The position numbers and the translations under genes are program-made. From Candidatus Harrisonbacteria bacterium (lineage in GTDB: Bacteria > Patescibacteriota > Minisyncoccia > UBA6257 > 02-FULL-45-10c), in NCBI GenBank assembly GCA_016192685.1, contig JACPTS010000001.1, forward strand, positions 529,099 through 593,098: a stretch of 64,000 nt of DNA, written 5' to 3'. A model generated the notes under the pieces. The model ran no database searches and was not told the origin of the DNA. It was given only the letters and a program-made list of their open reading frames with translations. Shown here piece after piece: positions 5,271 to 27,066 of the stretch. The first letter of the stretch is position 1. Every line of letters starts with the position of its first letter.

Positions 5271-6077
5271 CTATTGTTGTCCGTTAATATCAATATCAAA
5301 CCATTGTTTAATTAACTTTTTAATACGCTTAAATGCATTACCGACAGCTCCCGCCGTTGTTTTTAGTTCTTTTGCAATTTCACGGGCTGTAACTTGGTTA
5401 TATCTAATAACTACATCTTTTTTATATTCCTTTTCCAAGCCCCGAAGTTTTTTGGGAGAATAAGTGCCGCTCTTTTTAGCTATCACTAAAAAGCTGGACG
5501 GTAAATAATCCTTGCGCCTAACTGGATTTCCAATTCTTTTAATCAGCTTGTCAAAAATAACTAAATCTCTTTTAAATTGTTTTCGTGAGCGTATTGGTAG
5601 TGTTGTTTCTTTGGAAAAATAAAGTTTCTGTAAGTTTTTTAAATCATTTAAAGCCAGTTTTATTTCTTCTTTGTCTAAAAGGGCAAAAGTTTTAATAGAT
5701 AAATAATCAACCTCGCCGCTTTTTGGCTGGTGCTCAATAACAAAATTATAAACAGGGGGCACAATTTTATTTTTTAGAATGTAAGCCCTCAACCCATCGC
5801 CAAACAAGTTGATAAGGTGATAAGGCAATTTAAATTTTCGCCCCAATTGTTCTAATTGATTGCCGAATTTTAAATTGTCTTCTTTTTCATTAAGGGCTCG
5901 CTGCCAATTTGCCATTTGTTCGTCAGTAATAATACCGCTGCTGGGTATGTTGAATTGTTGTCTAATCGCGACGGCTTCTTTCTGGAATTGGGGTAATCTA
6001 ATCAATAATTCAAGCCGCATTCGGTTACGAAATGCGGCAGAACCCAAATTGATTGGTTTTTCGCGGCGGGCTGCCAT
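5271..6077 (-). CDS. Hypothetical protein with C-terminal HTH (sigma-70 region-4-like)
   Basis: C-terminus VTAREIAKELKTTAGAVGNAFKRIKKL is a helix-turn-helix. 268 aa. Confidence 0.4.
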   Translation of the reverse strand: MAARREKPINLGSAAFRNRMRLELLIRLPQFQKEAVAIRQQFNIPSSGIITDEQMANWQRALNEKEDNLKFGNQLEQLGRKFKLPYHLINLFGDGLRAYILKNKIVPPVYNFVIEHQPKSGEVDYLSIKTFALLDKEEIKLALNDLKNLQKLYFSKETTLPIRSRKQFKRDLVIFDKLIKRIGNPVRRKDYLPSSFLVIAKKSGTYSPKKLRGLEKEYKKDVVIRYNQVTAREIAKELKTTAGAVGNAFKRIKKLIKQWFDIDINGQQ

Positions 6078-6359: not shown

Positions 6360-6961
6360 TTATAGACTTCCCAAAAATCAAAGAAAATTTACACAAAGGA
6401 ATGGAAATTTTCTTACGACAAGAAATTAACCGTAAAGCTCCTTTTGCGGCAACGATTGGCAAACACTTCTTTCACGAAGGAGATAAGTCCTCTTACGAAA
6501 CAGTTGACCGTGAAAAAAAAGCTCTTGATTTTAAACGAGGCGAGAGTCAATTTACGGTAACTCGTGATGAAATGAATAAGTTGACCATAAAAGACATAAT
6601 TCAAAAAGTTCAAGGTATCGCAGAAGATATGGCGGGACAAATAGAGCGTAATCTATTCCAAACAATGAACGAAACTATTGAAAAGTCTGGCAATACAATA
6701 CCTGGTAATCCGCCGTTCTCGCCAGAAGCATTTTTGAAGGGTCTGGAAATGGTTGAAATTGATTTTGATGAGGATGACCGCAACAAACCTCAACTTCCCA
6801 CGCTGGTGATGCACCCAGACCTTGCGAAGAAAGCCAAAGAGCAGGAAGCCAATATGACAGCAGAGGAAAAGAAAGCCTTTGACGAAAAGATGAAGGCGAT
6901 GATAGATAAGAAATATGATGATTTTCTCACCAGAGAAGCCAAAAGAAAATTGGTGGACTAA
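6356..6961 (+). CDS. Hypothetical protein (cargo operon)
   Basis: 201 aa, charged/coiled C-terminus, no recognised domain. Confidence 0.4.
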   Translation: MIIDFPKIKENLHKGMEIFLRQEINRKAPFAATIGKHFFHEGDKSSYETVDREKKALDFKRGESQFTVTRDEMNKLTIKDIIQKVQGIAEDMAGQIERNLFQTMNETIEKSGNTIPGNPPFSPEAFLKGLEMVEIDFDEDDRNKPQLPTLVMHPDLAKKAKEQEANMTAEEKKAFDEKMKAMIDKKYDDFLTREAKRKLVD

Positions 6962-9449: not shown

Positions 9450-9710
9450 TCCTTTTAAATTTTTATTTTAAATAACCTTTTTAAGGTTATTCTATTTTTA
9501 TGAAAATCACAAGTCTAATCAGGCGAAATTCCAGGGTGTGGATAACCTGCGGATAAAAAAGCCATTTTAGCTTTATTTTTTAGCCTATTTTGGCGCTGGC
9601 TGGCATTGTTAAATTTTTAATCCAAGTGGGGTACAATTAAATGGTAGTGGGGAATTGTGGATAAGTATGGGGATAGAGCGTCAATCAGGGGATAAGTTCC
9701 ACTCGCTGTA

Positions 9711-9842
9711 CCTTTCTTTCTATCGGCACCGGCGTCGCTTCGCTCCAGCGGCGAAGCGCGCCTACGCCTCGCTCCGAAAATTTTCGCTTCGCGAAAAACC
9801 AATCTTTTTGGAGCTCCGTAGTTGCCGTACAAAAGAAAGGTA
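9711..9842 (+). repeat. GC-rich palindromic repeat element, family A, copy 1
   Basis: Core cggcaccggcgtcg...cgcctacgcctcgctccgaaa...ttcgcttcgcgaaa...ggagctccgtagttgccg with terminal inverted repeat acctttct/agaaaggt. Sits at the right edge of the integrative element. Confidence 0.7.
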
Positions 9843-9894
9843 AGCTCGCTAATTGTTGTTAGTTGTGGGTCGTTAGTCATAAGTCATAAGTCAA

Positions 9895-20347: not shown

Positions 20348-21052
20348 ATGGATTTAAGGAGAAAAACGGTTTTAGAAACAGCCATTAAAGAATATATTCG
20401 GAGCGGGGAGCCGGTAGGTTCTAAAGAACTCGCGAAAAAATACGATTTCGGCGTAAAAGCCGCGAGCATCCGGAATGAGCTTGGCCAACTTACCAAAGAC
20501 GGATTTTTAGCCCAGCTCCATACTTCCGGCGGCCGGGTGCCGACGGATAAGGGTTATCAGCTGTTCGTGGCATCTACGCTGGAAAATGTGGTGGAATCCA
20601 AAAAAATTCTGGAAGGCCGTTATGGGGCGCTGGCCGGCGATCTCCGCACTGGTAAACTGAAAGAATTCGTGGATGCTTTTTCCGGAGAAATGAAGCTTTT
20701 GGGCGTTGGCAAAAAAGAAAAAGAAATTCAGGCGTACAAGAGCGGCTTGAAGGATTTAGTAGAGCATTTAGATATTAGCACCAAAAAAGAAATGTCAGAG
20801 ATAGTGAACGATTTTGAATCATTAGATAGCCGGATTGACGAGGTGCGAGAGAAGATTTTTAATACCCTCCGTTTGCCCCAGGTATTTATCGGCAAAAGCC
20901 CGATTACCAAAAGCAAGAATCTTTCGGTGGTGATGGACAGCTTCAATATTAAAGATGGCAAGGTGCTGGTGGCAGTGATCGGGCCGAAGCGGATGGATTA
21001 TGATAAAACTTTAAAGGCATTTAAGCAGTTAAAAAATGAGTTAAAGAATTAA
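20348..21052 (+). CDS. hrcA: Heat-inducible transcription repressor HrcA (short form)
   Basis: N-terminal wHTH TVLETAIKEYIRSGEPVGSKELAKKY. 234 aa. Confidence 0.8.
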   Translation: MDLRRKTVLETAIKEYIRSGEPVGSKELAKKYDFGVKAASIRNELGQLTKDGFLAQLHTSGGRVPTDKGYQLFVASTLENVVESKKILEGRYGALAGDLRTGKLKEFVDAFSGEMKLLGVGKKEKEIQAYKSGLKDLVEHLDISTKKEMSEIVNDFESLDSRIDEVREKIFNTLRLPQVFIGKSPITKSKNLSVVMDSFNIKDGKVLVAVIGPKRMDYDKTLKAFKQLKNELKN

Positions 21053-21059
21053 TTTTTTT

Positions 21060-21207
21060 GATAGCTCTGCATATCTGCCTACCGGCACCGGCGTCGTTTC
21101 GCTCCTGCGGCGAAACGCGCCTACGCCTCGCTCCGAAATTTTCGCTTCGCGAAAGCCGAGCATTTCGGAGCTCCGTAGTTGCCGCACGGCAGATATCCAG
21201 AGCTATC
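21060..21207 (+). repeat. GC-rich palindromic repeat element, family A, copy 3
   Basis: ccggcaccggcgtcgtttcgc...cgcctacgcctcgctccgaaattttcgcttcgcgaaa...tttcggagctccgtagttgccg with terminal inverted repeat gatagctctgcatatctgcc/ggcagatatccagagctatc. Confidence 0.75.
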
Positions 21208-21214
21208 TATTACT

Positions 21215-21727
21215 ATGAGTGAAGATAATAAAGACGAAAAATTAAATTCCGAGGAGGAAGTTGGGGAAGAAAAGAAGCCAAAGGACGGGGAAGAAGTAGA
21301 TAAGCTGAAAGCCGAACGGGACGAATATCTTAACGGCTGGAAGCGAGCAAAAGCGGATTTAATCAATTATCAGAAAGACGAAGGCAAGCGGTTTGAGGAA
21401 ATGGCGGAATACGTGACCGGAGCTATGGTAAGAGATTTAATTCCGGTGCTGGATAGTTTTGAACTGGGAATCGCCGCGCTTGAAAAAAACGGTCCGGTGG
21501 ATAAAGGAGTTTACATTATAAAAACCCAGCTGGAAGAAGTTTTAAAGAAAAAAGGTTTGGAAAAAATTAAAGTTTCTCCTGGCGACCCATTTGATACTAT
21601 GAAACATGAATCAATTGGTGAAGTGGAGGGGAAAGGCGTTTCGGGACAAGTAGCAGAAGAAATTGAATCCGGCTATATGTTAAATGGCAAAGTCGTAAGG
21701 CCGGCACGCGTAAAGCTGACAAAATAA
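21215..21727 (+). CDS. grpE: Nucleotide exchange factor GrpE
   Basis: Acidic N-terminus, coiled coil, GrpE C-terminal beta domain. Start set at the ATG downstream of the repeat. Confidence 0.85.
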   Translation: MSEDNKDEKLNSEEEVGEEKKPKDGEEVDKLKAERDEYLNGWKRAKADLINYQKDEGKRFEEMAEYVTGAMVRDLIPVLDSFELGIAALEKNGPVDKGVYIIKTQLEEVLKKKGLEKIKVSPGDPFDTMKHESIGEVEGKGVSGQVAEEIESGYMLNGKVVRPARVKLTK

Positions 21728-21800
21728 CTACAATAAAATTAACTACAATAAACCACAATTAACTACAACTGTCGTATCTTGTAGTTATCTGTAGTCTATT
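21728..21800. repeat. Direct plus inverted 9-mer repeats in the grpE-dnaK intergenic region
   Basis: taactacaa occurs 3 times in direct orientation and is followed by its inverse ttgtagtta. Confidence 0.5.
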
Positions 21801-21810
21801 GTCAAAATAT

Positions 21811-23676
21811 ATGAGCAAAATCTTGGGTATAGATTTAGGCACAACTAATTCCGCGATGGCGATTATGGAATCCAGCGGTCCGCGCGTTTTGGAAAACTCG
21901 GAAGGCAATCGCACTACGCCGTCCATCGTAGCATTCTCAAAATCCAAAGAACGTTTGGTTGGTTTGCTTGCCAAACGGCAATCCGTCACTAATCCGCAAA
22001 ATACCATTTATTCGGTAAAGCGGTTTATTGGCCGGAAATTCAGCGATAAAGAAGTCCAGCACGACAAGAAAGTTCTTCCGTATGAAATCCGAGAAGGCGC
22101 TAATAACAGCGTGGAGGTGAAAATGGGCGAGGAATGGCTGAAGCCGGAACAGGTTTCCGCGATGGTGCTTGGAAAATTAAAAACCGACGCCGAAGCCCAG
22201 CTTGGCGAAAAAATTGAAGAAGCGGTGATTACCGTGCCGGCTTATTTTGATGATTCCCAGCGGCAGGCAACCAAAAACGCCGGAGAAATCGCCGGACTGA
22301 AAGTAAAAAGGATTTTAAACGAGCCGACCGCCGCCGCCCTTGCTTATGGCTTGGATAAAAAGAAGAATGAACAAATTGCGGTCTATGATTTTGGCGGCGG
22401 AACTTTTGACGTTTCCGTGCTGGAAGTCGGGGATGACACCGTGGAAGTAAAAGCCACTGGCGGCGACACCCATTTGGGCGGCGATGATTTTGACAAAAAA
22501 ATCGTGGAATATCTGATTACGGAATATAAGAAACAGGAAGGTGTGGATATTTCCAAAGACCCGTTGGCGCTTCAGCGTTTGCGGGAAGCCGCGGAAAAAG
22601 CCAAGCATGAGCTTTCCAGTTCCATGGAAGCGGAAATCAACCTTCCATATATTAGTTCGGACGCATCCGGGCCAAAGCATTTTGTCATGAAGCTTACCAG
22701 GGCAAAATTGGAAAGTTTAGTTCAGGAATTTATTGATAAATCTATTGAACTTGCCCTTAAAACCGTCAAAGACGCGAAATTTGATATAAAAGATATTGAT
22801 GAAGTTATTTTAGTCGGCGGCCAGACCAGAATGCCGGCAATGGCGGAAGCGGTGAAAAAAGCTTTTGGCAAAGAACCGCATAAAGGTGTGAATCCGGATG
22901 AGGTAGTGGCAGTCGGAGCTGCAGTGCAAGCCGGAATCATGCAGGGCGATGTGAAAGATATTTTGCTTTTGGATGTTACCCCGCTTTCGGTTGGTATTGA
23001 AACTTTAGGCGGAGTTTTCACTCGCCTCATTGAAAAAAATACAACCATTCCAACTGCTAAAACCCAAATTTTTTCCACTGCCGCGGACAATCAGACTTCG
23101 GTGGAAATTAATGTGCTTCAGGGAGAGCGGGAAATGGCTGCGGACAATAAAACTTTGGCGCGGTTTATTTTGGATGGAATTCCGCCATCTCCGCGAGGCA
23201 TGCCGCAAGTGGAAGTTACTTTTGACATTGATGCCAATGGAATTTTAAACGTGTCTGCCAAAGACAAAGCCAGCGGCAAAACCCAATCAGTAAAAATTGA
23301 AGCCAGCACCAGCTTATCCAAAGATGAAGTGGAGCGCTTGAAAAACGAAGCGAAAATGCACGAAGCCGAAGACAAGAAAAAGCGGGAACTGGTGGATTTG
23401 AAAAATACCGCCGAAAGCACAGTCTATATGGCAGAGAAAGCGTTGAAAGATATACCAGCTGAGAAAGCGGCAGGCGCTAGTGACGTTATTAAATCTGTTC
23501 AGGAAAAAATAGACGCATTAAAAGGAGTCAAAGACAGCACTAATGTCGAAGCAATTAAAAAAGCTTTAAGTGAACTTTCTCAAGAACTCCAAAAAATCGG
23601 ACAATACATGAATCAGCAAACTGGCGGCCAGCAACCGCCAGCAAGTGAATCGCCGTCAGAAGAAGATAAAAAATAA
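21811..23676 (+). CDS. dnaK: Molecular chaperone DnaK (Hsp70)
   Basis: [17 protein letters not shown], full ATPase and substrate-binding domains. Confidence 0.95.
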
Positions 23677-23679
23677 TTT

Positions 23680-24504
23680 ATGGAAATAATAACAAAGAAA
23701 TTTTATTTAAAGCTTGGTTTATCAGAAAAAGATATTTTAGCTCTTAATAAAGAGCTTTCATTACTCGCTGGACTTAAATTAAGTCCATCTGCCAAACCTC
23801 GTCGTATAGAAATGTTACAAGAGGCCATTCGATGGCCAAAAGGTAAAAATCAAGAAAAAAGGAAAATAACGGAGCTTTATAAATCTGGTGATTTTATAGT
23901 TGCCGTTGGTAAACCAGGAAAAGAAGCGGCGCCAGCTTTCAAACGGAAACATTACATAACTGGCAAGATTACTAATAATCCAAATGACATGAACCCCTTT
24001 GTTATGAGGGGAGGTAAAAAAGTTGGGAATGATTTAACTTTTGCAGAATTATTTGAGCAAATTGAACATTTAATTCGAGCAGATTTACTTGGATTGGAAC
24101 TTTTAGGGATGCTTATATTCAGAATGGCTTTTATGTTAGATCACAAAAAAGATTTAAAGGGGAAATGGAGATATATTCCTCCGGAAAAATCTTTGGCAAT
24201 GCTTAAAAAACGACTCCCTAAAGTTGGCGATATTCCGGTAGATATATTTTTATATTTTCTCGATGTATTAGCTCTCAATGAGGATGTTAAGATGCATACC
24301 TTGGGTCATGAAAATGCTCGATATGATTATGGACGAGTCAATACTTTACTTACCTTTACTCACTTAATTGCAGTTTTATTAAATCGACGCTCTCTAGCAA
24401 AATTTGCTGGTACGTTTGCTCGGCCACCTTCGGGAATGGCTCCACTACCTAAAATAAAAGGACTTTTTGAAACTTATCCTCTTTTATCTCCAGATTTTGT
24501 TTAA
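23680..24504 (+). CDS. Hypothetical protein, possible PD-(D/E)xK nuclease
   Basis: 274 aa. Contains IPVD-x12-EDVK. Its 3' end overlaps the fused LexA-MTase gene by 4 nt in convergent orientation. Confidence 0.3.
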   Translation: MEIITKKFYLKLGLSEKDILALNKELSLLAGLKLSPSAKPRRIEMLQEAIRWPKGKNQEKRKITELYKSGDFIVAVGKPGKEAAPAFKRKHYITGKITNNPNDMNPFVMRGGKKVGNDLTFAELFEQIEHLIRADLLGLELLGMLIFRMAFMLDHKKDLKGKWRYIPPEKSLAMLKKRLPKVGDIPVDIFLYFLDVLALNEDVKMHTLGHENARYDYGRVNTLLTFTHLIAVLLNRRSLAKFAGTFARPPSGMAPLPKIKGLFETYPLLSPDFV

Positions 24505-25967
24505 ATTTTAATCCTTTTTCTTCCCAGAAATAATTTATGTTCTGGAGCAATGAAACCATTTGCGAGGCGTTTGTTTATTATGTCACAGTATTCTTTGTTG
24601 AGCTCGGCCGAAATAAATTGGCGATTTAAATTTCTGCATACATCTATTTCTGCACCACTACCACCAAAGAGAACTAAAACCTTATCTTTTGGCTTAGTTG
24701 ATGATTTAATAAACATTTCAGTTAATTTTTGTGGAATTTGACAAGCGTGAAAAGTTTTTTCTTTGCTGACATTTTTTACAAGATTAAACTCAAACCATGA
24801 GTAAGGCATTCTTCCCTTTGAGCCATTTGCCAGATTTTGACGAATTCTTCTGTCTGTTGGATTTTTATATGGTAACGCTACTGCGTCTTTGAAGAATTTA
24901 TTATCAGCACTTTTACGAACATGAAGTATGCTTCTGTGTGCTGTTGTGAATCTTTTTGGTGTATGTCCGACATTTGTATTATAAACCCAAACATACTCAT
25001 TAATATTAGGAAAATTTATATCTAAGTATTTTACGCGAAGATGTGCATTTTGTTGAGGATAGTTCATCATAAAAAGGTTCCCATCGTTTTTTAGAACTCT
25101 CATTGATTCCTTAGTAAGTTCGGTATACCAATTTAAATAATCGTCAAAATTTCTTGTATAGTTATTACTACCATATCTAATACCGACATTATAATCCGGA
25201 TCCCCAAAAATCATGTCAATGCTATTATTTGGCAGGTCTTTCAAAACATGCATTATATCGCCGTTGTAAACTTTATTGATATATTCAGAAATATTTCCAC
25301 GTTGTTGGGGGCTTTTTTTAGAGGGTAGAATAAATGATTGGTTTAATTGTTTTATCTTATTAGTTTCAATAACATCCAGCATAATTCCTTGAATATGAAA
25401 ATCTTGTCCGCGGCGCACAATTATCGGCTCCATTTTTTTATTTGCCGGTTGTAGACGAACTTGCCCGCGTTCTTTATAGAATTTTTTAAGCGTTGCTCCA
25501 CCATCAACTAAGGCCACAATTTTTTGACCATTTTCAGCAGTGCTTTGGTGGCGCACAAGAATTGTATCGCCATCATTAATATTTTCATCAATCATACTGT
25601 TACCAGCTACTTTTAAAGCGTAAATATTGCTATTGCTGGAATTGGGGAGTTTATTTTTAGGAATCGCTATATTTTCGCTTACAGTATCAAATAGTGTTAA
25701 TGGTTGACCGGCAGCAATAGTGCCCAGTAGGGGAATTTGAACCATTTGTTCATTTTGGTTAGATAATTCAATCCCACGAGAGATGTTATCATTTCGTCGT
25801 AAAAAACCTTTTTCTACAATCGCATCAATATGTTCCAATATCGTTGAGTGCGCGGAGAGGCGAAAATGTTTTTTAATTTCCTCCGTGGTAGGGGAAATAG
25901 ATTGTTTTTTAATAAAATCAGAAACAAAATCGTAAATTTGTTTTTGACGTCTTGTCAGTGTTGCCAT
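24501..25967 (-). CDS. Fusion protein: LexA-type repressor (wHTH plus S24 autopeptidase) fused to a beta-class N4/N6 DNA methyltransferase
   Basis: The N-terminal approximately 200 aa form a complete LexA: wHTH, hinge IPLLGTIAAGQP with the Ala-Gly scissile bond, Ser VAGNSM, Lys ATLKK. The C-terminal approximately 290 aa carry MTase motif IV (IFGDPDYN) ahead of motif I (VLFGGSGAE). Single uninterrupted ORF of 488 aa. Confidence 0.75.
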   Translation of the reverse strand: MATLTRRQKQIYDFVSDFIKKQSISPTTEEIKKHFRLSAHSTILEHIDAIVEKGFLRRNDNISRGIELSNQNEQMVQIPLLGTIAAGQPLTLFDTVSENIAIPKNKLPNSSNSNIYALKVAGNSMIDENINDGDTILVRHQSTAENGQKIVALVDGGATLKKFYKERGQVRLQPANKKMEPIIVRRGQDFHIQGIMLDVIETNKIKQLNQSFILPSKKSPQQRGNISEYINKVYNGDIMHVLKDLPNNSIDMIFGDPDYNVGIRYGSNNYTRNFDDYLNWYTELTKESMRVLKNDGNLFMMNYPQQNAHLRVKYLDINFPNINEYVWVYNTNVGHTPKRFTTAHRSILHVRKSADNKFFKDAVALPYKNPTDRRIRQNLANGSKGRMPYSWFEFNLVKNVSKEKTFHACQIPQKLTEMFIKSSTKPKDKVLVLFGGSGAEIDVCRNLNRQFISAELNKEYCDIINKRLANGFIAPEHKLFLGRKRIKI

Positions 25968-26224
25968 AAGATATTGACTTTCTTAATTCACGCTTCATAT
26001 TAATTATAACCCGACAATTTCCCGACAAGAGGCAAAATTGTGGATAACTTTTCAGTAGTTAAGAATTTGGGAGCATGAAATAAAGAAAAATCCAGATAGG
26101 GTAGTCAATAAAATTATTAAATTTTTGAAATAGAATTTGCTTCTTTTTACGAACTGATTTATACTATTCAGTAATTTAAAAAATAATACGAAAGTAGTAT
26201 TTTCTATTTTAGAAAATAATTTGT

Positions 26225-26677
26225 ATGGCAATTCAAATGGATTTAAAAAAGATTTCGTTGATTCGTATAGAGGGTGCTAAAATACTATTAGATAAAGGAG
26301 ATTATCAAGGTTCTGCATATATGATGGGTCTTGCTCTAGAGTGCGCCTTAAAGGCAACTGTATGCAAAACTCTTAGAATACCCACCTATCCCGAAGATTA
26401 TAATGCCGATAAAAAAGTTCCCGACTTTTTTATGACGCATTCTTTTGTTAGACTATTATTAGTATCTGGTTTAACAGATATATTTAGTGCAAGTAGCAAT
26501 AACGTTAAAGCTTTCGATAACTGGTCCTTTTTTACGATTCAATATCCGGGTGAATGGGTGAGTATGCGCTATAGATTAGATCAGTTTGAACAAGATTTAA
26601 CAGAGGAGTTATATCAATGTTTATATTTTGATGAGAATAGCATTATTAAAGTCATTGAATATCAAAATAGATGGTAG
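26225..26677 (+). CDS. HEPN-like small protein (AT-rich accessory gene)
   Basis: N-terminal helix pattern AKILLDKGDYQGSAYMMGLALECALKA, typical of the HEPN fold. No clear Rx4-6H motif. Confidence 0.35.
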   Translation: MAIQMDLKKISLIRIEGAKILLDKGDYQGSAYMMGLALECALKATVCKTLRIPTYPEDYNADKKVPDFFMTHSFVRLLLVSGLTDIFSASSNNVKAFDNWSFFTIQYPGEWVSMRYRLDQFEQDLTEELYQCLYFDENSIIKVIEYQNRW

Positions 26678-27066
26678 ATAAACTTAAAAAAATATTAAGC
26701 AAAATGAAATCAGATGGAAAACCAGTCTGGCTATTTGCTTTTTTAAAAATGGATGAAATTATAGATAAATGGTCTTTAGTTATTTCTGCGCCTTGGATAA
26801 ATGAACAAAATCGTGATCAAGAATTTGAATATATTATCAATTTGTTAAAAGAAAATCTTAATGGCGAAGAATTATCTTCAATAGCTCGTATTAGTGTTTT
26901 GGCTAAAGATAGTCATTTAAGTCAAGAATTAATGAAGAAAAAAACAGGTGATTTAATAAAGGAAGAACAAATAAATGGCAACATTATTCACGAAGGTCAA
27001 ATATTGGAATCAAGCGTTGAGGCGCAGTGGCCATCAAATAATTTATTTGCTAAACAATCAAGTTAA
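26671..27066 (+). CDS. Hypothetical protein (overlapping partner of the HEPN-like gene)
   Basis: 131 aa. Overlaps the upstream gene by 7 nt. AT-rich. Confidence 0.3.
   Translation: MVDKLKKILSKMKSDGKPVWLFAFLKMDEIIDKWSLVISAPWINEQNRDQEFEYIINLLKENLNGEELSSIARISVLAKDSHLSQELMKKKTGDLIKEEQINGNIIHEGQILESSVEAQWPSNNLFAKQSS

Follow-up and report, generated by a model that had tools for sequence, protein, structure and literature searches.

The window analysed here, a stretch of 64,000 nucleotides from the genome of Candidatus Harrisonbacteria bacterium (contig JACPTS010000001.1, positions 529,099 to 593,098), contains, immediately downstream of a heat-shock operon, a gene of 274 codons (positions 23680–24504, forward strand) that converges on a gene encoding a LexA–DNA methyltransferase (MTase) fusion and that is probably the restriction component (R) of a mobile Type II restriction-modification (R-M) module, as judged from sequence comparisons. 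The open reading frame (ORF), identified in the ORF list and by direct reading of the sequence, starts with ATG, is intact and follows the end of dnaK (23676) after the trinucleotide TTT (23677–23679), dnaK (21799–23676) being preceded by hrcA (20348–21052) and grpE (21179–21727). At the opposite end, the TTAA palindrome at 24501–24504 constitutes the 4-nt overlap of the two convergent stop codons, an arrangement of the R and MTase genes that at least 15 related loci share. A preliminary description of this DNA had reported the convergence, the 4-nt overlap and the 3-nt spacing after dnaK, and all three are exactly as it gave them. The gene lies at the left border of a low-GC segment (23680–27066) comprised between dnaK and greA and containing the R gene, the LexA-MTase gene and two overlapping small genes; the GC content at third codon positions (GC3) of the genes of this segment is 0.19–0.27 (0.22 for the 274-codon gene), compared with 0.44–0.51 in the flanking hrcA, dnaK (0.45) and greA, and the segment is an inserted island.

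The convergent 488-codon ORF (24501–25967, reverse strand) displays three Pfam domains: a LexA winged helix-turn-helix (HTH) DNA-binding domain (residues 1–70; 25758–25967, PF01726, 1.7e-13), a LexA-type S24 autopeptidase domain (residues ~79–196; 25380–25733, PF00717, 4.8e-29) and a β-class N6_N4 DNA methyltransferase domain (residues ~226–488; 24504–25292, PF01555, 1.9e-36), all of them on the reverse strand. The fusion scores 180.6 bits against the lexA equivalog TIGR00498 (cut-off 110.95) and its MTase domain 389.6 bits against the PADLOC model MTase_II PDLC03337. The S24 domain retains the Ala-Gly cleavage site (IAAGQP), the serine (GNSM) and the lysine (TLKKF), which are conserved in the alignment; with the winged HTH, the peptidase, the cleavage site and the Ser/Lys dyad all present, the LexA portion looks cleavage-competent. 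The MTase has FGGSG as motif I and, as motif IV, DPDY in place of the canonical (D/N/S)PP(Y/F), a substitution maintained from the Patescibacteria to the partner enzymes of Bacteroidia and Clostridia over a range of 60–90% identity.

Since 256 homologues of the 274-residue protein at 55–86% identity and, in an exhaustive profile search, 379 family representatives after clustering at 50% identity were found, the ORF can be regarded as a genuine gene and not as a chance reading frame. The family has a patchy distribution encompassing Patescibacteria, DPANN and other archaea, Bacteroidota, Clostridia, Gammaproteobacteria, Chloroflexi, Elusimicrobia and Spirochaetes, the identity between bacterial and archaeal copies being 52–60%; a tblastn search of the plasmid and phage collections returned no copies. 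The R and MTase genes occur as a pair in at least nine unrelated genomic contexts. Of four related loci that were checked, three have a tRNA gene abutting the 5′ side of the module (tRNA-Ser at 5849–5938 of L015, tRNA-Gln at 260–331 of L018, tRNA-Glu at 5772–5843 of L022), a position that suggests integration at tRNA loci. Taken together, the multiplicity of contexts, the tRNA adjacency, the GC3 and the bacterial–archaeal identity describe the behavior of mobile, horizontally transferred DNA.

The same survey of contexts bears on the possibility, contemplated in the preliminary description, that the gene simply belongs to the chaperone operon. A co-chaperone of the hrcA-grpE-dnaK operon could indeed be expected 3 nt behind dnaK, neither a promoter-like nor a terminator-like site having been detected in the window scan between the two genes, and the synteny with dnaK is shared by a sister lineage of Harrisonbacteria. 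However, this synteny exists in that one sister lineage only, at least nine contexts are devoid of dnaK, the GC3 of the gene departs from that of dnaK, a Pfam search yielded neither a J-domain nor any other chaperone-related match, and the constant partner of the family is an MTase. The co-chaperone reading is effectively refuted by these data, its probability being negligible; operon membership, which thus fails functionally, may hold transcriptionally in this genome.

The linkage to MTases was assessed in 80 reference-genome loci whose neighbouring genes were submitted to Pfam in batch. An MTase is found within 400 nt in 67 of them (34 of the C5 and 33 of the N6_N4 type) and one gene away in another five, six loci are cut by a contig end, and two have full flanks without any MTase. 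With the truncated loci set aside, 72 of the 74 informative cases, in bacteria as well as in archaea, therefore have a DNA MTase as the adjacent gene or at a distance of one gene, so that the co-occurrence of homologues and MTases, which the preliminary description had indicated as a point to be checked, is borne out. Most loci hold just the family gene and the MTase. Close relatives (at least 68% identity) are convergent to the same LexA-MTase fusion, mostly with the 4-nt overlap and in unrelated genomic contexts; at these loci the MTase domain is 81–90% and the LexA domain 50–61% identical to that of the window. The partner of the DPANN copies (53–60% identity) is a plain MTase of 253 residues without LexA. 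In the intermediate tier, 30 of 38 neighbours are C-5 cytosine methyltransferases and three more are N6_N4 enzymes, while distant copies (25–34% identity) are found in Bacteroidia, Clostridia, Elusimicrobia, Spirochaetes and Dehalococcoidia, where the MTases beside the R homologues are 60–65% identical to that of the window and have the same DPDY motif IV. The pairing with chemically different classes of MTase and the more rapid divergence of the partner that is not an MTase form the pattern by which restriction enzymes are classically recognized.

Concerning the C5 partners, their closest homologues on annotated plasmids are 45–50% identical and mostly solitary, one lying beside an enzyme of the BglII/BstYI family; a tie of these MTases to M.Sau3AI through annotated plasmids was considered and, being weakly supported, was not retained. 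The gene upstream in locus L075, used as a C5 query, proved not to be an MTase and gave no match. Genes of the DndB family directly adjoin the MTase in several unrelated loci (L006, 3309–4235; L007, 8737–10371; and the plasmid locus L101, 4119–5339, on a plasmid of Paraclostridium whose C5 MTase is related), and the MTase–DndB association looks recurrent.

The conservation of the 274-residue protein looks enzymatic. K78, G80, K81, E82, N100, D103, M104, R148, D154, N200, E201, D202, K204, G218, R219, N221 and T225 are invariant throughout the family, the number of invariant residues, described as polar, being put at 17–19; five of the conserved residues are acidic, K and H are conserved as well, and the conserved E, D, K, H, N and R residues are still kept at 28–40% identity. 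If the protein is a metal-dependent nuclease, its active site would be drawn from K78-P-G-K-E82, N100/D103, D154-H155, N200-E-D-x-K204 and R219/N221.

This conservation is not accompanied by any recognizable similarity. Searches with the single sequence and with profiles gave no match in Pfam (down to E ≤ 1, the DpnII/MboI endonuclease profile included), NCBIfam, PADLOC or PHROGs, phmmer and hmmsearch comparisons of the protein and of the family profile with the sequences of the Protein Data Bank (PDB) were likewise negative, as were the profile searches with distant family members, and when a family member from Bacteroides served as the seed of another large protein search, all the proteins retrieved were unnamed. 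Two AlphaFold2 models were computed, the first from 25 close homologues (predicted local distance difference test, pLDDT, 78.9; predicted template modelling score, pTM, 0.83), the second from 54 sequences extending down to 28% identity (pLDDT 93.6, pTM 0.92, all five models being above 91). They have the same topology, consisting of a small β-sheet (residues 62–69, 72–78 and 105–110), a hairpin (155–165) and some ten helices. The best hit of the predicted model in a Foldseek search of the PDB has E = 0.39, which is not a meaningful match; as modelled, the confidently predicted fold matches no known nuclease.

The preliminary description had called attention to an IPVD-x12-EDVK string, taken as a loose PD…DxK motif, and had proposed structure prediction as a means of detecting a PD-(D/E)xK fold. 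The string is present (IPVD at 185–188, EDVK at 201–204) and E201, D202 and K204 are invariant; on the other hand, D188 is replaced by G, E, R or K in the homologues and the invariant N200-E-D-V-K204 segment lies, in both models, within the helix 187–207. Because of the variability of D188, of the helical location of N200–K204 and of the lack of any detectable nuclease fold, the PD-(D/E)xK interpretation is unsupported; the α-β-β-β-α-β core with D…(D/E)xK on neighbouring strands, by which this superfamily is defined, was looked for and not found. More generally, when the 274-residue protein was tested for a catalytic domain of the PD-(D/E)XK, HNH, GIY-YIG, phospholipase D (PLD) or half-pipe type, none was recognized. 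One may entertain the idea of a His-Me (β-β-α) finger made up, in the model, of D154-H155, the hairpin 155–165 and the helix 169–178, but the residues of this helix are not conserved. The preliminary description would have given up its nuclease on finding an unrelated fold together with homologues lacking MTase neighbours: the first of these two circumstances is what modelling returned, the second is contradicted by the linkage survey.

A fold matching none of the hydrolytic nuclease folds invites the consideration of a restriction-type partner of the MTase that is not a phosphodiesterase, being instead a nickase or a DNA glycosylase/apurinic-apyrimidinic (AP) lyase similar to R.PabI. R.PabI, a restriction enzyme later recognized as a sequence-specific DNA glycosylase/AP-lyase, is a precedent for such unexpected chemistry, and the MTase linkage would fit it equally well; yet the five conserved acidic residues with K and H suit a metal-dependent nuclease and nothing points specifically to glycosylase chemistry, so that this alternative appears unlikely.

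Additional information comes from the genes that precede R in the relatives. In six close relatives (L004, L012, L016, L017, L019 and L020) a gene encoding a conserved 73-residue HTH_3 protein terminates 1 nt before the R start codon, and this protein matches the solved controllers C.Esp1396I (3.9e-5), C.Csp231I, C.AhdI and C.BclI as well as the Control_protein models of PADLOC (7e-7). In one further locus an AbrB/MazE-type gene occupies the controller position and in L015 just a 3′ remnant of the controller (C) gene is left between the tRNA gene and R. A putative dedicated C protein is thus encoded 5′ of R in six relatives and is absent from the window.

Three independent clues, namely the existence of Sau3AI-type fusions, an exchange of the MTase and the avoidance of GATC, bear on the target site and, because of them, GATC is somewhat favored as the sequence that the 274-residue protein would recognize. 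The first clue is provided by eight relatives of ~460 residues in which the family domain is followed by a C-terminal extension whose profile matches MutH (3e-8) and, at 1e-22, the C-terminal effector domain of Sau3AI, which is non-catalytic. The cleavage site of Sau3AI is /GATC, and the C-terminal domain of that enzyme lacks activity and serves as an effector (PMC5766183); in the ~460-residue relatives the family domain takes the place of the Sau3AI catalytic domain. Two other fusions were observed in the family. P0225 (658 residues) joins the family domain to a region weakly matching GmrSD_C (HNH-type; E 0.0026), and P0163 (393 residues) joins it to a C-terminal Peptidase_S24 (LexA-like) domain (5e-22), from which it would follow that in some organisms the SOS-cleavable module is borne by the R-like protein itself instead of by the MTase.

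In view of the fusions to a MutH/Sau3AI-like DNA-binding domain and of the probable GATC site, one could also envisage a methylation- or hemimethylation-directed nicking enzyme, a MutH analogue serving repair instead of defence. The candidate of a cryptic MutH-like domain was rejected, in that hhalign of the family profile with the profile of the Sau3AI-C-like domain returned a match probability of only 0.06 and a PDB search with the family profile found no MutH/Sau3AI match; furthermore, the mobility, the patchiness, the controller genes and the tight convergent pairing with an MTase are hallmarks of selfish R-M systems and would be foreign to core repair genes. A repair function is accordingly very improbable.

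The second clue stems from loci in which the MTase has been exchanged (L001–L003, L012 and L026). Here the R homologue is 69–86% identical to that of the window and keeps every invariant residue, while the MTase domain situated behind the same LexA is only 25–27% identical to the window MTase; it shares 50–52% identity with the second methylases of pSRQ700 and an S. aureus plasmid, both of which sit in a DpnII-type three-gene layout. pSRQ700 encodes LlaDCHI/LlaII, which recognizes GATC (PMC6458302, PMC11514479). Such an exchange would be survivable for an active restriction enzyme only under protection of the same site by both methylases. The C-terminal 30 residues of R are altered in these loci. 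Elsewhere, a gene of 188–196 codons forms, with a DpnA/M.LlaDCHIB-like MTase and without any homologue of the 274-codon gene, a convergent pair of its own; genes of this family are found at 6888–7463 of L001, 5189–5779 of L012, 5169–5744 of L026 and 4001–4573 of L097, and the family, abundant (226 matches) and unannotated, belongs to the Patescibacteria and may be a second unrecognized family of restriction enzymes. In L001–L003, L012 and L026 a gene/MTase pair of this kind has recombined into the LexA fusion, where it supplanted the MTase domain originally present and the C-terminal tail of the R homologue.

The third clue is the frequency of GATC, which among 4-bp palindromes is the most depleted both in the window (ratio of observed to expected occurrences 0.36) and in the host DNA of each tier (0.10–0.55). 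Other scarce sites of the window are TCGA (0.28), GTAC (0.40), CTAG (0.41), CTNAG (0.47) and GGCC (0.65), a depletion that suggests exposure to several restriction systems. Site specificity may differ between subfamilies.

Some of these observations would also suit a non-catalytic accessory of the MTase, such as a regulator, a reader of methylation or a specificity or targeting factor, in which case the module would not be a restriction system. The lack of a recognizable nuclease fold or motif agrees with this proposal, and the 191–196-codon gene of the loci with an exchanged MTase could be the actual nuclease there. Nevertheless, most loci consist of the family gene and an MTase alone and the partners span unrelated MTase classes; the family domain is found at the catalytic-domain position of the Sau3AI-like fusions; a protein of ~270 residues with 17–19 invariant polar residues looks enzymatic; and the genes found upstream are of the controller type, whose products are established switches of toxic R genes (PMC3874152). 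An accessory function is quite unlikely on these grounds.

The expression of the two genes of the module appears to be governed differently. A promoter scan of the 3′ end of dnaK revealed no convincing promoter for the 274-codon ORF and, since the controller has been lost and neither a promoter nor a terminator follows dnaK, R is probably cotranscribed with the heat-shock operon. The LexA-MTase gene has a promoter core of its own (26003–26028, reverse strand) composed of two TTGTCGGG repeats and a TATAAT (26008–26003). The repeats are identical 8-nt direct repeats (26028–26021 and 26017–26010) whose starts are 11 nt apart. A direct-repeat pair with this 11-nt spacing is present at the LexA-MTase promoter of 13 of 13 loci and none is found near the R gene. 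Because the repeats fall into two classes (“TCGG” and “TTTCTA”) in step with the sequence of the LexA recognition helix, TTGTCGGG is a candidate operator of the LexA domain.

Some 10 nt upstream of these repeats lies TTATCCACA (26039–26047, reverse strand), a 9-mer corresponding to the consensus DnaA box, which occurs four times in the window, where 0.33 occurrences would be expected. An exact copy is found at the lexA or LexA-MTase promoter of 12 of 14 LexA-type loci (L001, L004, L006, L007, L011, L012, L013, L016, L017, L018, L022 and L046), L011 being a case in which lexA is a separate gene, and within the short divergent MTase/R intergenic region of the Patescibacterial C5-type loci L054 and L060; it was not found in the archaeal loci and occurs once in 105 kb of tier-3 loci. 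Being invariant while the HTH and the repeats vary, TTATCCACA is probably not a LexA operator, and its link to DnaA or replication is speculative. Two exact DnaA boxes (9537 and 9656) and several GGATAA variants are also present in a ~440-bp intergenic region of the window (9450–9894), which may be oriC-like or DnaA-regulated.

The explanation that we favor, as stated at the outset, is that of a mobile Type II R-M module whose cutting half would be the 274-residue protein, acting like a Type II restriction enzyme and yet fitting none of the known nuclease superfamilies, and whose modification enzyme would be the convergent LexA-fused β-class methyltransferase. The ancestral layout would have consisted of a small C gene before R, with M convergent; in this genome the C gene would have been lost and R grafted directly behind dnaK, so that transcription of the heat-shock operon probably extends through it. 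The methylase gene would be repressed, at its own promoter, by the fused LexA bound to the 11-nt-spaced repeats, and RecA-stimulated self-cleavage at Ala-Gly would free the HTH, yielding more methylase during DNA damage, which would be the counterpart, in a Type II system, of restriction alleviation. The reverse course, in which cleavage would destabilize the methylase and R would then kill the cell, is less parsimonious; it is the former direction of SOS control that we infer. The SOS-wired R-M-like module suggested in the preliminary description is, in the light of the linkage, the mobility, the LexA features and the repeats, a reasonable reading, the nuclease fold being the part of it that is not recognized. 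A more ambitious version, according to which an unrecognized catalytic restriction fold specific for GATC is combined, in the Patescibacteria, with a LexA-fused methylase and a DnaA box to give an SOS-wired and possibly replication-linked protection, is tentative and rather doubtful.

A few observations weigh against the restriction reading. All database copies are labelled “hypothetical” and the family is unnamed, so that the nuclease activity of its members is a deduction. In the window R has neither a promoter nor a controller gene of its own. The loci with an exchanged MTase hold, between R and MTase, the extra unannotated gene of 191–196 codons. In L049 (1309–2643), from a Levyibacteriota metagenome-assembled genome, an intact R (49% identity) stands beside an apparently frameshifted LexA-MTase; either the split reflects a mistake of assembly, or R is tolerated there in the absence of its MTase. 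Finally, avoidance of GATC is common in prokaryotes and the ratios given above come from hosts of the family alone.

The remainder of the island is occupied by the two small overlapping genes (26225–26677, 150 codons; 26671–27066, 131 codons). Given the weak matches of the first product to HEPN (E 0.0033) and to the PADLOC model PDC-M28A, the two genes may be a toxin-antitoxin or a defence pair; just 5′ of them lies a perfect 9-nt inverted repeat (TATTTTCTA/TAGAAAATA, 26198–26218).

A widespread and confidently modelled family without structural relatives is a concrete target in the search for a new nuclease architecture. If it is GATC-specific, it would constitute a new case of convergent recognition beside the MboI/DpnII, Sau3AI and CviAI types; if the LexA-methylase operates as proposed, the antidote of a Type II R-M system would be derepressed by DNA damage, with restriction alleviation built into the small genomes of the Patescibacteria. 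A literature search on LexA-MTase fusions and SOS-regulated R-M systems found nothing specific, and a review of R-M regulation of 2013 names LexA for toxin-antitoxin systems only. Both the 274-residue and the 191-residue families are invisible to defence annotators and, because they escape PADLOC, Pfam and NCBIfam, the R-M content of candidate phyla radiation (CPR) and DPANN genomes is under-counted.

The catalytic folds of restriction enzymes are few, and a census of 2008 left 56 characterized and 521 predicted restriction endonucleases without fold assignment (PMC2441816). A comparison with known systems may start from R.PabI, the “half-pipe” restriction glycosylase, which exemplifies a restriction enzyme outside the known nuclease superfamilies (fold classification in PMC2441816), although no sequence or structural similarity between it and the 274-residue protein was detected. 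Sau3AI (Type IIE, /GATC, with a C5-MTase partner) resembles the fused relatives in its two-part layout, consisting of a presumed catalytic N-terminus and an effector-like C-terminus, and resembles the family at large in the pairing of many members with C5 MTases and in the probable GATC target. With the DpnII/MboI/LlaDCHI group the module has in common the probable GATC site and the β-class N6_N4 partner, the MTase of the exchanged loci sharing 50–52% identity with the second, DpnA-type methylase of LlaDCHI; unlike that group, it has no similarity to the DpnII endonuclease and possesses one MTase instead of two, the window enzyme being 24–27% identical to the DpnA type. The relatives in which an HTH gene of ~73 codons ends 1 nt before R are similar to the C-protein systems of the Esp1396I, AhdI, BclI and PvuII types, whereas the window copy has no C gene, is joined to dnaK and has a LexA regulator on its MTase instead. 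Lastly, the N-terminal HTH on the MTase and the operator-like repeats in its own promoter recall M.SsoII and M.EcoRII, which are described, in work cited in PMC3874152 (refs 169–171), as repressing their own synthesis through an N-terminal DNA-binding region. The difference is that the regulator fused here is a full LexA endowed with the S24 autoprotease, the Ala-Gly site and the Ser/Lys dyad and, since the fusion carries a complete LexA, its repression would be relievable by RecA-stimulated self-cleavage.

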